In this document: positions 1-12,375 of the stretch, piece after piece | Numbering within the stretch: position 1 is the first letter of the stretch | How the letters are laid out: the number at the start of each line of letters is the position of its first letter | Assembly (NCBI GenBank): GCA_965262725.1 | Contig: OZ253555.1 | Coordinates: 1,184,001 to 1,248,000 of the forward strand | DNA length: 64,000 nucleotides | Direction of reading: 5' to 3' | Source: Dehalococcoidia bacterium | GTDB taxonomy: Bacteria; Chloroflexota; Dehalococcoidia; UBA2979 | Notes under the pieces: model-generated | Told to the model about the DNA's origin: nothing | Database searches by the model: none | Seen by the model: the letters and a program-made list of their open reading frames with translations, nothing else | Program-made: the position numbers and the translations under genes

Positions 1-6
1 GAATCG

Positions 7-550
7 GTGAGTGCCCAAGCGGCTAACTCCATCCAAGACAAGGTCCGAACACTACAACGCACGCTTTACCGGGCGGCCAAGGCCGACCCCAATAGACGCT
101 TTCATGCGCTCTACGACAAGGTTTATCGCAGAGACATTCTGGAGCGCGCGTGGGAGCAGGTGCGTCGCAATCGCGGCGCAGCCGGTATCGACGGCGTCAC
201 GCTCGCCGAGGTCGAGCGCTACGGCGTGGAGCGCCTGCTGGATGAACTGGCCACGGAACTGAAGGAGGGAAGATACCGGGTGCAGCCGAGCCGCCGGGTC
301 TGGATACCCAAGCCCGGTCGGTCGGAAGAGCGCCCGCTCTCGATTCCTTCGGTCCGCGACCGCATCGTGCAGGCGTCGCTGAAGCTCGTGACGGAGCCGG
401 TCTTCGAGGCCGACTTCCTGCCATGCAGCTTCGGCTTCCGCCCGAAGCGTTCGGCCCATGACGCCCTGCAGGTCCTCATTGACGAGGCGTGGCGGGGCAG
501 GCGGTGGGTAGTGGAGACGGACATCGCCTCGTGTTTCGAGTCGATACCGC
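7..550 (+). CDS. ltrA: Group II intron reverse transcriptase/maturase, 5' part (joins 1413-2206 after the inner intron is removed)
   Basis: RT0-3 motifs: AWEQVRRNRGAAGIDG, IPKPG..RPLSIPSVRDRIVQ, SFGFRPKRSAHDA, ETDIASCFESIP. Confidence 0.93.
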
Positions 551-1412
551 GTGCGTCCGGAAGTCGAAGGGGTGGTGACGTGATGACGTGACCGGTCCGG
601 AGACATGCTCGTTGCTGCCAGCCGGTGAGAGTCCGGCACGGGTAACTGTCAGGAGGCCCGTTAGCAGGTCGGCGGCGTGGACGGGAAACGGTCTGCGTCG
701 AAGCCCGACGTCAAGAGCCCTATGAGGGGGAGCAAACGTGCGGTCCGCAGCATGACGCGAAGTCTGCCGCGCCGTGAGACTCGCCTGTCTATTGACAGGA
801 CCAAGGAGGAGCCGAGCCCGGGTGGTCAGGGCGAAGGCCATGGACGAGGTGAAGATCCTGGAATGCAGCCTCAAGAAACCTCCCGGCGTATGGGACGTGG
901 AACGTACGGAAGGTAGCGACGGGAACCGGAGAAGCCCTCCCCGGCCCGGCACCCTGTGAGAGGGCGTCGGAGCGAGGCGTCCTATAACCGGTCAGAGCCG
1001 GGAAGTGGACAGCCAGCCGGAAGGGTGGCGGAGGGGGTCGTAGTACCGCTGGAGCCGGACGGACAACATAACCGCCGGTGATGGGAAGGACCCCTACTTT
1101 GTCCGTGCATGTTGCTGGGGGTGTGGACTGGTGAGTGCCCCTCGGGGCTAGCAACCACTTGGTAGGGTTCGAGGCTCTCCGCACATGCTGTACCGGCTGG
1201 CCAAGGCACGACCCACGTTGTGGGGAGCGCTGCATGCCATCTGGTGAAGGGCATCGGTGAGCCGGATGAGGGAGAACCTCACGTCCGGTTCGATGTGGCA
1301 GGGGCTGGAGACGGACGCTGCTATGGCCGTGGAGTTGGGCACCACCGGGAAACCGGCTTGGAACTGATGCGCCACCGCCTACGGCTCGCACCGCGCCAGC
1401 CCCTGACCCTAC
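551..1412 (+). mobile_element. ORF-less group II intron inserted in the RT gene (twintron), 862 nt
   Basis: Starts GTGCG at 551; domain V at 1259-1291; ends CCCTAC at 1412. Removal restores the in-frame ..TCG ATA CCG C|AC GAC CGT CTG ATG (SIPHDRLM). Confidence 0.93.
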
Positions 1413-2206
1413 ACGACCGTCTGATGACGGCCGTCGAGGAACGGATATGCGACCGCAATCTCCTGAAGCTGGTACGGGCGATGCTGCGTGCCGGTGTGAT
1501 GGAGTCGGGGGTCGTGCAGCACAGCGCGACGGGTACGCCGCAGGGCGGGGTGATGTCCCCGCTGCTGGCCAATGTCTACCTGCACCGGTTGGACCGGGAC
1601 TGGGAGGCGAAGGGTGATGGCGTGCTGGTGCGCTATGCGGATGACCTCGTGGTGCTCTGCCGGAGCCGGGAGGAAGCGGAGCGGGCGTTGGCCCTGCTGC
1701 GTGACCTGCTGGGTGAGCTCGGACTGGAGCTCAAGGCGGAGAAGACGCGCATCGTGCACCTGCGGGAGGGAGGCGAGGGGCTGGAGTTCCTCGGCTTCGA
1801 GCATCGCTGGGTACGTGCGAAGCGCAACAAGAATATCCAGTTCCTCGCACGCTGGCCCTCACGGCGAGCGATGCAGCGGGCGCGGGACCGCATCCGTGAA
1901 ATCACGGCGCGGTTGCGTCTGCTGCTGAGTCCCCGGCAGGTCGTGGAGGAAGTCAATCGCTACCTCCGCGGCTGGATGAGCTACTTCCGCTACGGCAACT
2001 CGGCGAGGGCGTTCGACGTCCTGCACTGGTTTGCCATGTGGAGACTCAAACTCTGGCTGGGGAAGCGGTTGCGTTGGCGGCGACGCCATCGCGGGCACCC
2101 GTTTCCCGTCGCCGACCGTCTGGGGCTCATCTCGCTAGCTGGACAGCGCGTCGTGGCACCACGGCCATATCGACCGTGGCGGGGCACCCCGCATGCCGCC
2201 CGGTGA
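1413..2206 (+). CDS. ltrA: Group II intron reverse transcriptase/maturase, 3' part (spliced product 445 aa; no endonuclease domain seen)
   Basis: GTPQGGVMSPLLANVYL, RYADD, EFLGF, maturase X-domain NRYLRGWMSYF. Confidence 0.93.
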
Positions 2207-2370
2207 AGGGCATCGGTGAGCCGGATGAGGGAAAACCTCACGTCCGGTTCGAGGCGGCAGGGGCTGGAGACGGACGATGCTACGGCTGTGGAGATGGGCG
2301 CCACCGGGAAACCGGCCTGGCAATATGCGCCACCGCCTACGGCTCGCACCGCGCCAGCCCCTGACCCTAC

Positions 2371-2510: not shown

Positions 2511-2511
2511 G

Positions 2512-4430
2512 GACGCTGGTGCCAAACTCGAGTCACGGCGGCCGCGGTCCGTGTGAGAGGGAGGTGTAGCGTCGGGTGGGCGCGGGCCGGGAGTTGCGCC
2601 GCCAGGGGGTGAGCGGGGCCGGCATCGACCCGGGATCGGGACCCCCGGACGCAGGCTCTCCCGCAGTGGCCCCCGCCTCCGTCTCCCCTACGAGGGCGCC
2701 GCGACCGCCCACCGGGTTGGTGTGTAGTGCAGCCCCAGCGTCGCCAGCCGCGCCAGGTTGACTGAGGCGGCGAGCAGGTTGTGGTCGGCATCGACCTTGA
2801 GACGGCCCCGGACACGGGCGACGCGGCCCCCGTGTCTGCGACGGGTCGTATGCGCCACCTTGCGTTCGACTATCGAGCGGACCGTGCGGTAGCCGGAGAG
2901 CCACCCGGGAGTCTGCTGGCGTGCCCGGGCGGCCGCGAGACTGGCCTCGTGGATCCCGACCTCGACGGTGCGGCCCGCAGGCGATGTGGTGCACTGGGCG
3001 CGAAGCGGACAGGGGCTGCAGGCGCCCCGGAAGTGGGCGGTCCCCGGGCCGTCGGAGGCGCGGCGAATCGGCACGGTCACCTCCGCGGGACAGGTGACGG
3101 TCCCCCTCTCCAGGTCGACGGTGAATCGCTCCTTGCTGAAACGGTGATGCGGTGCGGTCGCTCTCTGAGTGCGGCAGCGGGACTCGACCCCGTGCTCCTC
3201 CAGCAGCGACTGGAACGCGCCCGAGCCGTAGGCCGAATCGCCGTAGACGGTCGCCGTCCCGGTGCTCGCCTCCGCAGCCGGGTCGTCGGCATCGTCGTGT
3301 TCGCCTGCGTCCTCCAGCAGGTCCGTGATCAACTCCTCCGCGATATCCCCGTCCGCCACGTTGCCTGCGGTCACCGTGGTGTGGGTGATGAGCTCCGACT
3401 CCGGGTCGATCGCCAGGTGCCCCTTGTAGCCATCGAAGCCGTGCGCAGAGCTCTTGCGCCCGTGGCGGGCGTCGGGGTCCACGGTCGAGATGATGCGGTC
3501 CCTCGCCACCCGCCGCGCAATCACGAAGCGGCCGCCTTCGTCCTGCTCGAGGTCCTGCCCCACCACGGCCGCACACAGCTCGCCTGCCCGCGCAACGCGC
3601 TCGTCGAGCTCCCGTCCCTCCAGCACCCGGAGGCAGCTGGAGACATCGGTCGCCAGTTCGTCGATGAGCGCCCGCGCAGCCTCGCGGTCCTCCCAGTCAC
3701 ACGGAGGCTTGCCGGGAGCTCGATAGTCGTCATCGCGCCTCAGCACCGCCCGCAGCTCGGCCTCGAGCCCGGACTCACCGAGGCGCTCCGCCTCCCGCAG
3801 CAGCCCGCGGAGCGACGACCGGAGCAATGTCACCGTGTCCTGCGTCGCGACCGCGTCGTAGAGCGGCGTCGAGTCCAGCACTCGCTGCGCAGAGAGCAGC
3901 TTCGCCTCGCGCGCCACCACAAGCGTGGCCTCGAAGATGCGCCGGGGGCGCTCGGAGCGGGCGAGGCGCGCCCGCATCGAGACCAGGACCGTGTGCACGA
4001 AGCCCGGCGCGTCGTAGTCGAGTCCGCCGCAGGCGAACTTCCAGCGGGCGTCCCACTCGAAGGCCGCCACCGCCTCACGGTCGGACAGGCCGTGGAGACG
4101 CTGCAGCACCATGACCGTGGCGACCACCCGCGGGGGAACGCTCCGGCGGCCGCGAGCGGAGAAGAGGTCGGCGAACATCTCGTCGGGGAAGAGGCGTTCG
4201 CCGTGGCGGGCAAGGAGGGTCCAGATGGAGTTCCCGGGGAGCCTCTCAGCGACGTAGGCGGTGCTCTTGAAGAAGGTAAGGGGCTGCCTGGAGGTCTCTC
4301 CCTGTGTCATGAGCGAGACTTTCACTGCGAACAGAACTGATCACCAACATGATCGCATTCCGTGACTCAGTTCGCAACGATGCCCCGCCTCCAGAAGGCA
4401 CCCACCGCCCTACAAAAAAACACCAGGCTC
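2512..4430 (-). mobile_element. IS1182-family insertion sequence
   Basis: Imperfect terminal inverted repeats GACGCTGGTG (2512-2521) and CACCAGGCTC (4421-4430); CTAG direct repeats at 2508-2511 and 4431-4434. Confidence 0.85.
2688..4310 (-). CDS. IS1182-family DDE transposase
   Basis: N-terminal GRRSVPP..LSDREA, LDST, STVDPDARHG, GYKGH, YGDSAYG, Cys cluster CP..CSPCPLRAQC, RSIVE. Confidence 0.9.
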   Translation of the reverse strand: MTQGETSRQPLTFFKSTAYVAERLPGNSIWTLLARHGERLFPDEMFADLFSARGRRSVPPRVVATVMVLQRLHGLSDREAVAAFEWDARWKFACGGLDYDAPGFVHTVLVSMRARLARSERPRRIFEATLVVAREAKLLSAQRVLDSTPLYDAVATQDTVTLLRSSLRGLLREAERLGESGLEAELRAVLRRDDDYRAPGKPPCDWEDREAARALIDELATDVSSCLRVLEGRELDERVARAGELCAAVVGQDLEQDEGGRFVIARRVARDRIISTVDPDARHGRKSSAHGFDGYKGHLAIDPESELITHTTVTAGNVADGDIAEELITDLLEDAGEHDDADDPAAEASTGTATVYGDSAYGSGAFQSLLEEHGVESRCRTQRATAPHHRFSKERFTVDLERGTVTCPAEVTVPIRRASDGPGTAHFRGACSPCPLRAQCTTSPAGRTVEVGIHEASLAAARARQQTPGWLSGYRTVRSIVERKVAHTTRRRHGGRVARVRGRLKVDADHNLLAASVNLARLATLGLHYTPTRWAVAAPS

Positions 4431-12062: not shown

Positions 12063-12139
12063 GGGCGGTTAGCTCAGTTGGTACGAGCGCTCGCTTCACA
12101 CGCGAGAGGTCACTGGTTCAAGTCCAGTACCGCCCACCA
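12063..12139 (+). tRNA. tRNA-Val(CAC)
   Basis: Cloverleaf; anticodon arm CTCGC-TT CAC AC-GCGAG; TTCAA T-loop; encoded CCA. Confidence 0.97.
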
Positions 12140-12177
12140 TCGAGGCTCAATCGAAGCGGGGGTGGCTGGTCGGACGT

Positions 12178-12265
12178 GCCGAAGTGGCGGAATCGGTAGA
12201 CGCGCTACGTTCAGGGCGTAGTGAGCCTTGCGCTCGTGTGAGTTCGAGTCTCACCTTCGGCACCA
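12178..12265 (+). tRNA. tRNA-Leu(CAG)
   Basis: Anticodon arm CTACG-TT CAG GG-CGTAG; long variable arm; encoded CCA. Confidence 0.97.
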
Positions 12266-12299
12266 TCGCCACCGCGCCTGCGAGTCGGGATAGGTACGA

Positions 12300-12375
12300 G
12301 CGCCCGTAGCTCAGTGGATAGAGCGCAGCCCTGCGGAGGCTGAGGCCGAAGGTTCGAATCCTTCCGGGCGTACCA
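12300..12375 (+). tRNA. tRNA-Arg(GCG)
   Basis: Anticodon arm CAGCC-CT GCG GA-GGCTG; D-loop AGTGGATA; encoded CCA. Confidence 0.95.

Follow-up and report, generated by a model that had tools for sequence, protein, structure and literature searches.

How can a family of mobile introns go on moving when the gene for the protein that moves it is itself interrupted, in every copy, by one of the introns that it serves? This question is raised by the first 2,370 nucleotides of the stretch analyzed here (the window), 64,000 nt of DNA from a Dehalococcoidia bacterium (Chloroflexota; UBA2979; GenBank assembly GCA_965262725.1, contig OZ253555.1), which corresponds to G000:C1:1184001-1248000 in a single-contig, 3.67-Mb assembly with 70.6% G+C and a completeness of 91.55% by marker genes. 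Near its start lies a reverse transcriptase (RT) gene of a group II intron, split by an 862-nt insert at 551-1412. We think it probable that this insert is a non-autonomous intron that retrohomed into the gene for the RT of the helper lineage to which it belongs, creating both a twintron (one intron within another) and a loop in which the RT depends on splicing for its production. In what follows, the inner element is the 862-nt intron, which has no open reading frame (ORF) of its own; the outer intron belongs to family A; family B shares about 80% identity with A; and the C type is a distant RT family. The parts of the inner element are as follows (window positions).

551-1412, plus strand: inner ORF-less group II intron, 862 nt, GTGCG...CCCTAC, 1 of 28 genomic copies
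619-755, plus strand: core of domain I, matching group-II-D1D4-4 (RF02003) with 102.8 bits against a gathering score of 49, over model positions 1-138 of 138
778-783, plus strand: proposed exon-binding site 2 (EBS2), GACUCG, which pairs with 5'-exon bases -14 to -9, CGAGUC
822-826, plus strand: proposed exon-binding site 1 (EBS1), GUGGU, which pairs with 5'-exon bases -5 to -1, ACCGC
1131-1214, plus strand: remnant of an RT gene in domain IV, consisting of the start region GTGAGTGCC and about 28 degenerate codons, with a deletion joint at 1214/1215
1259-1291, plus strand: domain V hairpin, from folding, two of its pairs showing compensatory changes
1297-1412, plus strand: domain VI, about 112 nt; A1406 is the bulged branch point, and CUAC at 1409-1412 forms the 3' end

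The ends of the element can be read directly, GTGCG at 551-555 and CCCTAC at 1407-1412, and they are the 5' GUGYG and the AY-type 3' end of a group II intron. A match to the domain V/VI model RF00029 (1257-1412, 37.5 bits, E value of 3.8e-5) stops exactly at 1412. Folding of 1250-1412 gave the domain V hairpin followed by a long domain VI in which A1406 is bulged, seven nucleotides from the end; the predicted energy was -85.7 kcal/mol (z = -4.64), and none of 200 shuffled sequences folded as well. We found the same structure in four 3' ends (those of the inner element, outer A, B, and the intron of a same-genus relative, G003), with compensatory changes in 6 of the 55 predicted pairs. By these matches and folds, the inner element carries all the parts of a group II ribozyme. 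Domain VI of group II introns is usually much shorter than the ~112 nt found here. The extended arm, which carries compensatory changes, is conserved in the inner element (1297-1412), in A (2256-2370), in B, and in the G003 relative.

The surrounding DNA is a second group II intron, whose parts in the window are as follows.

1-550, plus strand: domain IV of outer intron A with the N-terminal part of its RT gene; it starts with GTG at 7, codons 1-181 fill 7-549, and base 550 opens a split His codon
1413-2206, plus strand: C-terminal part of the RT gene, with the remaining two bases of the His codon, then 263 codons including YADD and the maturase (GIIM) domain, and the stop codon at 2204-2206
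2191-2370, plus strand: outer domain V (2218-2250) and domain VI, with the 3' end at 2370; 91.7% identical to 1232-1412
2371-2511, no strand assigned: 3' part of the outer intron's host, an IS630-type miniature element of 187 bp whose terminal repeat ...GGACACTAG ends at 2511; the other 46 nt precede the outer intron, off the window

Outer A spans G000:C1:1183435-1186370, from a GTGTG 5' end 566 nt before the window to window position 2370, and so measures 2,936 nt with the inner element and 2,074 nt without it. It has Rfam matches of its own, to RF02003 at 1183503-1183639 and to RF00029 at window positions 2216-2283 (41.5 bits). A complete inner intron (1184551-1185412) thus lies within a complete outer intron in the same orientation, which is the arrangement of a twintron. 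Removal of the 862 nt joins base 550 (c) to 1413-1414 (ac), giving a His codon and the reading ...DIASCFESIP-HDRLM (DRLMTAVEE...), and restores an RT of 181 + 1 + 263 = 445 codons. In the Pfam comparison, positions 1-83 of the RVT_1 profile fell in the first half of the gene and positions 84-204, together with GIIM, in the second. The break, at profile position 83/84 of 205, thus falls midway through the RT domain, and the ETDIASCFESIPH stretch at the split presumably corresponds to RT block 3, which holds a catalytic Asp. RVT_1 and GIIM were the only domains that Pfam found in the 444 to 445 amino acids of this RT family, so that an endonuclease domain is absent. When the inner element was removed in silico, 9 of the 12 A copies in the genome had an open frame of 461 codons. 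A frame of 328 amino acids that opens at 1220 and runs from the inner domain V/VI region into the C-terminal RT part was considered as a maturase-only protein and set aside, chance frames being expected at this G+C content.

The two introns resemble each other at both ends. Over domains I to III, the first 544 nt of the outer intron are 86.7% identical to the inner element, and a BLAST alignment of 181 nt pairs window positions 1232-1412 with 2191-2370 at 91.7% identity (inner 682-862 with outer 1895-2074). By this alignment, the inner and the outer element are group II introns of the same lineage. An earlier note, made from the letters of the window without database searches, had described an ORF-less intron in the RT gene of its own family, with the ends and the domain V/VI named above, whose excision restores FESIP|HDRLM and a 445-amino-acid RT, and each of these statements holds: the codon count and an uninterrupted orthologue in G003 bear out the last. 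The note had also put the 3' match at about 170 nt; that match is real, but it is slightly longer, and the note lacked the 5' start of the outer intron and with it the similarity over the first 544 nt.

The origin of the inner element is apparent from the G003 genome, which belongs to the same genus and contains a single full-length intron, which matches outer A at 87% identity across the whole 2,074 nt. Its RT (444 amino acids, locus L031, 249-1583, minus strand) is uninterrupted and reads ...VSCFESIPHDRLMAAVEE... through FESIPHDRLM, and at the nucleotide level ...CTTCGAGTCGATTCCGC|ACGACC... is an empty site for the inner element. The inner element aligned to the G003 intron only at positions 1-659 and 1879-2073, positions 660-1878 being missing. 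As aligned, then, the inner element is a derivative of this lineage by a single deletion of 1,219 nt, which took RT codons ~29-434 and kept the start of domain IV. The RT is intact in both G003 and another relative, G008. A search of 61 relatives by DNA and of 99 genomes of the order by protein (G000 is counted in both) found no other ORF-less copy and no other RT split at codon 181/182, many of the relatives' genomes being fragmented, so that repeats may be unassembled in them. Only one Rfam domain I-IV match was present in each relative locus scanned, namely L031 of G003, L032 and L036 of G008, and L033 of G018. Related RT genes also occur in split form, but at different positions, in two further genera of this family: one in G018 (G018:C24:29416-32985) at about amino acid 228 by ~2.2 kb, and those at the G008 loci L032 and L036 near the start of the ORF by ~1.1 to 1.2 kb. 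The nearest plasmid-borne RTs were those of Streptomyces and Rhodococcus (64 to 66%), and a two-piece tblastn match on a Streptomyces plasmid (H7), examined as another split RT, was rejected on finding two adjacent RT genes. An exact 24-mer across the 5' junction occurred in neither public genome contigs nor metagenome contigs (0 in each), collections from which records of this organism's own genome may be excluded.

How many of the helper genes are occupied? We found 28 inner 5' ends in the genome, 24 of them belonging to full-length copies that are 100% identical. The remaining four comprise one copy truncated at position 857, two interrupted by insertion sequence (IS) elements with target duplications, and one interrupted by another intron. 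Thirteen copies lie in the 12 A introns, three in the three B introns, one in a C-type RT gene, and 11 elsewhere. The inner element occupies the same position in all 12 A copies, and an identical element sits at the homologous site in all three B copies. Because it is identical inside B introns that are themselves only ~80% like A, the inner element is likely to have moved independently of its hosts. The earlier note had proposed looking for uninterrupted helper copies and for further copies of the 862-nt element; the search yielded the 28 copies and no uninterrupted A/B helper, tblastn with the restored RT finding no contiguous A/B-type RT anywhere in the assembly (0 of 15 A/B RT genes continuous). 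Nor did a fuzzy search of the genome allowing up to three mismatches find an unoccupied inner site. The dependent element thus outnumbers its helpers 28 to 15. RF02003 had 44 matches in the genome. The C-type RTs, which are 38 to 40% identical and whose RNA matches RF02005, include at least 10 contiguous RT frames. Because the same junction recurs in 15 intron copies and the G003 orthologue is uninterrupted, the insert cannot be a chance feature of one locus.

Several unusual arrangements came to light in this census. The copy at 1524130-1524991 interrupts the RT gene of a C-type intron (G000:C1:1521918-1526026) at ...IYESGY|YGFSHGFRPG..., another position in the RT than the A/B site. One outer A intron (G000:C1:549500-551223; L052, 1501-3224) contains two identical inner introns in a head-to-tail tandem with 0 nt between them; the 5' exon is intact there and only the first 3'-exon base differs, which suggests re-homing at an already occupied site. 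At G000:C1:732582-737446 (L051, 583-5447) there is a nest of three levels, in which a B intron contains an inner intron that in turn contains a 1,923-nt C-type intron; the last (RF02005, 152.6 bits, with an RVT_1 plus GIIM ORF) lies in the inner intron's domain V loop, with the same orientation. IS elements of three kinds (~2.6, 1.4, and 1.2 kb, with terminal repeats and target-duplication-like overlaps of 4 to 13 bp) have inserted into several twintrons and inner copies, examples being as follows.

G000:C1:1591544-1594170, 2558516-2561136, 3121222-3123847, and 291405-294032: IS insertions
G000:C1:1422686-1424103 and 3124036-3125453: IS insertions
G000:C1:1391733-1392940: IS insertion

The sites in which the inner element lies provide a record of how it moves. 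The assignment of EBS1 and EBS2 used the RT site together with an alignment of the inner element, A, and B, so that the RT site fits by construction and the 12 other sites serve as the test. The EBS loops are exactly where the inner element, A, and B differ, and each matches its own 5' exon (for A, CGGAU with AUCCG and CAAUU with GGUUG; for B, GAGUC with GACUC and ACCC with GGGU). Across the 13 distinct insertion sites of the inner element, the 5' flank pairs at 8 to 11 of 11 positions, against 6.44 +/- 1.36 at random; nine of the sites reach at least 10 of 11, compared with 0.9% of 300,000 random genomic sites. EBS1 alone makes all five pairs at nine sites and four of five at the other four. 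The pattern of pairing indicates that the inner element is one that spreads by reverse splicing into EBS-matching sites. Open frames span the ectopic insertion sites, but at 70.6% G+C long ones arise on both strands, and they are not taken to identify particular genes.

The orientation of these copies is not random either. With the origin and terminus of replication set from GC skew alone (cumulative minimum at 0.40 Mb, maximum at 2.51 Mb, with a plateau from ~1.6 Mb), the lagging-strand template carries the sense strand of 11 of the 12 inner copies that lie outside A/B introns (binomial p = 0.006), and the sole exception lies 26 kb past the skew maximum. Such a shared orientation would be expected of an intron that has an endonuclease-less RT and depends on the replication fork. 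Outer A behaves in a similar way. Each of its 12 copies sits in an IS630-type element, 46 nt inward from the end marked by the terminal repeat CTAGTGTCC..., five in full-length elements (1,180 bp) and seven in miniature ones (187 bp); the full element encodes a 380-amino-acid DDE_3/HTH transposase on the strand opposite the intron, with the intron site 15 codons before the stop. The target is favorably oriented in 10 of the 12 occupied sites, compared with 5 of 14 empty ones (Fisher p = 0.021). Occupied and empty copies of the same target thus differ by orientation, which makes this genome a clean example of replication-strand-dependent homing.

What does occupation of every helper gene mean for the supply of RT? 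With the break midway through the domain, a downstream start codon cannot rescue a complete RT. Should the family be active, production of its RT would depend on excision of the inner element, because the assembly offers no other way to encode a full-length A/B RT. That the RT can be made only after the inner intron splices had been put forward in the earlier note; it is still inference, strengthened by the break within the domain and by the finding that none of the 15 A/B RT genes is uninterrupted. Excision of the inner element most likely needs the same RT. We envisage that the twintron would be transcribed and that A-type RT/maturase already in the cell would help to splice out the inner intron; excision would give the continuous frame of 445 codons for translation, and the new RT would splice and mobilize inner and outer RNAs by fork-dependent retrohoming. 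The RT supply for ~43 intron copies would then hang on excising a parasite from its helper, in a loop sustained by inherited protein. New twintrons might arise by retrohoming of the composite RNA into IS630-type sites, or the outer intron might home first and be reinvaded by the inner element at once; composite and separate homing both fit the data.

Several observations weigh against this interpretation. The inner domain V/VI match is below the Rfam gathering score of 40, which the outer copy exceeds. The EBS assignment was derived from the RT site, leaving the 12 other sites alone to test it. Activity is inferred from copy identity alone, and either gene conversion or the polishing of an assembly so rich in repeats could have inflated that identity. 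The read runs, all mapped on the locus L015, offer little help with splicing: X19, an RNA-labeled run (share 0.07) of a type that can contain DNA, showed one 263-nt contig inside the inner intron, and neither it nor X20, whose RNA nature is a guess, had a contig covering a junction (three contigs each), so that they are uninformative on this point. In X7, a run from another study that we guess to be DNA, two contigs join L015 position 1499 to 2362, skipping 862 nt with an ambiguity of one base (depth of 254, shorter side of 39 nt, marked 'between: not known'). Uninterrupted RT alleles therefore seem to exist in other populations, so that saturation might be a peculiarity of this strain. The same run also holds a joint that skips the whole 2,936-nt twintron, corresponding to an empty IS site. 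In X1, two contigs have the inner 5' end (before L015 position 1497) preceded by a flank, ...CTCATCGAGATCGAC, that is absent from the G000 assembly, which hints at further insertion sites in the population.

Two further points, the contiguous C-type frames, which might act in trans and so remove the dependency, and the incomplete assembly, which leaves room for an unassembled intact A-type copy, lead to the best of the competing explanations, namely, that there is no real dependency at all because RT is supplied in trans from one of these two sources. The uninterrupted A-type RT DNA in X7 would fit such a supply, as would the reported action in trans of Thermosynechococcus elongatus RTs on ORF-less introns (PMC2882425). 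The C-type RTs are, however, only distantly related and go with RNAs of the RF02005 rather than the RF02003 type, the inner element has kept the start region of an A-type domain IV, and the 3.67-Mb contig contains no intact A/B-type RT. We therefore regard a supply in trans as unlikely, and a loop of splicing-dependent RT production as the better account.

A slightly less likely explanation is that the system is a recently dead fossil, in which full saturation cut off the supply of RT, leaving the identical copies as remnants of a burst that is over. It would account for the lack of any uninterrupted RT gene, for the 14 A homing sites that are still empty, and for the lack of spliced RNA in runs without junction-covering contigs; moreover, all three B copies and 3 of the 12 A copies have been broken further by IS elements. 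Yet 24 inner copies show no difference whatsoever, four twintrons are identical over 2,936 nt, and the tandem inner pair implies that homing continued after occupation. The empty sites, too, can be explained without death of the family, since 9 of the 14 are unfavorably oriented. We regard this explanation, too, as unlikely.

We also considered whether the twintrons were multiplied passively by transposition of their IS630-type hosts rather than by retrohoming. The constant position 46 nt inside an IS630-type end would fit transposition, and the seven miniature hosts could be moved in trans. Against this, identical twintrons occur in hosts of at least five sequence variants, full-length as well as miniature, and these variants also include 14 sites with no intron, all of which argues for homing into preexisting IS elements. 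Occupancy depends on orientation to replication, and these elements hold neither the B copies nor any of the 12 inner copies that lie beyond the A/B introns. Passive multiplication is accordingly improbable. An assembly artifact in which two repeats were wrongly joined scarcely needs to be entertained: the genome is extremely repeat-rich and short-read contigs break at the junctions, none bridging them by 31 nt, but the same two junctions occur in 15 genomic contexts with exact frame restoration and matching pairing between EBS and intron-binding site, and an X1 contig that ends 2 nt inside the inner intron is probably a k-mer branch from an A/B difference 29 nt upstream.

The interpretation that we favor, a non-autonomous intron inside the RT genes of its own helper lineage, has a close precedent. 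The comparison with cyanobacteria and Methanosarcina that the earlier note had drawn is apt. In T. elongatus, the ORF-less intron TeI3 (family F3) lies inside the RT ORF of TeI4a-e (family F1), at a site flanked by the first ATG and a second one five codons further on, so that RT can start at the latter unspliced, and TeI4f and TeI4h have continuous ORFs (Mohr, Ghanem and Lambowitz 2010, PMC2882425). There as here, ORF-less introns arose by deletion from ORF-carrying relatives, inner copies are identical and occupy one conserved site in the helper RT ORF, some introns home into insertion sequences, and the question of composite versus separate mobility is open (PMC2882425). The deletion that gave rise to the present element likewise removed the ORF of the helper lineage and kept the start of domain IV; neither a continuous helper RT nor a bypass start codon, both of which T. 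elongatus has, was found here. The present system is unlike that of T. elongatus in that the insertion is at codon 181/182 of 445, in mid-RT, with no bypass and none of 15 helpers continuous, in that the outer copies, too, are nearly identical, and in that the host bacterium has 70.6% G+C. The principle is thus already known from T. elongatus; what sets the present case apart is the mid-RT site without a bypass, the occupation of 15 of 15 helpers, and the near-identity of the outer copies. We found no description of this particular twintron system in the literature searched.

Three other systems share features with this one. In Methanosarcina acetivorans, according to a review, homing into other introns has built nests of up to five introns, without coding exons, that are balanced by recombination (PMC4424553). 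Repeated site-specific homing into group II introns is common to both organisms, as are nests of more than two levels, of which the three-level nest described above is the example here. The difference is that one ORF-less element dominates here and is present in every helper gene. RmInt1 of Sinorhizobium meliloti resides in ISRm2011-2, a member of the IS630 family, and has an RT without an endonuclease and a preference for the lagging-strand template (PMC1802570, PMC8914252). The present system agrees with it in all three respects, an endonuclease-less RT, a homing site in an IS630-type element, and a lagging-strand-template preference, whereas outer A is part of a twintron and antisense to the transposase gene; the likeness is one of behavior. 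In C.te.I1 of Clostridium tetani, repeated domain V/VI modules specify alternative 3' splice sites and so give rise to protein isoforms (PMC4424553). Here also two similar domain V/VI modules lie downstream of one 5' splice site, although the repeats in C. tetani are in one intron and those here are in two nested introns. On this likeness of the modules the earlier note had based the idea that they could allow cross-splicing of 5' and 3' ends; no alternative junction appeared in the runs, which had no contig across a junction. A twintron of Trichodesmium was dropped as a comparator because it does not concern an RT gene.

On a more speculative level, the parasite might gate the RT of its helper at a conserved catalytic stretch that the helper would find hard to alter, mobility might be an on/off state inherited through the cytoplasm, and the composite twintron might be the unit of retrohoming. 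We offer this only tentatively and consider it rather doubtful. If it were true, loss of the RT protein would silence the family for good, unless the inner intron could splice itself or a foreign RT restarted the loop. The system could in any case address how a retroelement parasite throttles its host element, how composite twintrons move, and whether splicing can gate a bistable switch of mobility. It presents the relationship of parasite and helper at its limit, every helper gene being occupied inside the RT domain while the element still looks freshly mobile.

The region downstream of the twintron is also rich in mobile DNA. The host ends at 2511, and the sequence next to it, GACGCTGGTGCCAA..., recurs beside other copies of the element. 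On the minus strand, 2688-4322 encodes a DDE transposase of 544 amino acids (DDE_Tnp_1_6, DUF772), and mobile elements appear to be nested in this interval (2511-4325). Further along, three consecutive tRNA genes are located on the plus strand at 12063-12372 (Rfam tRNA; 68.1, 52.9, and 72.0 bits).

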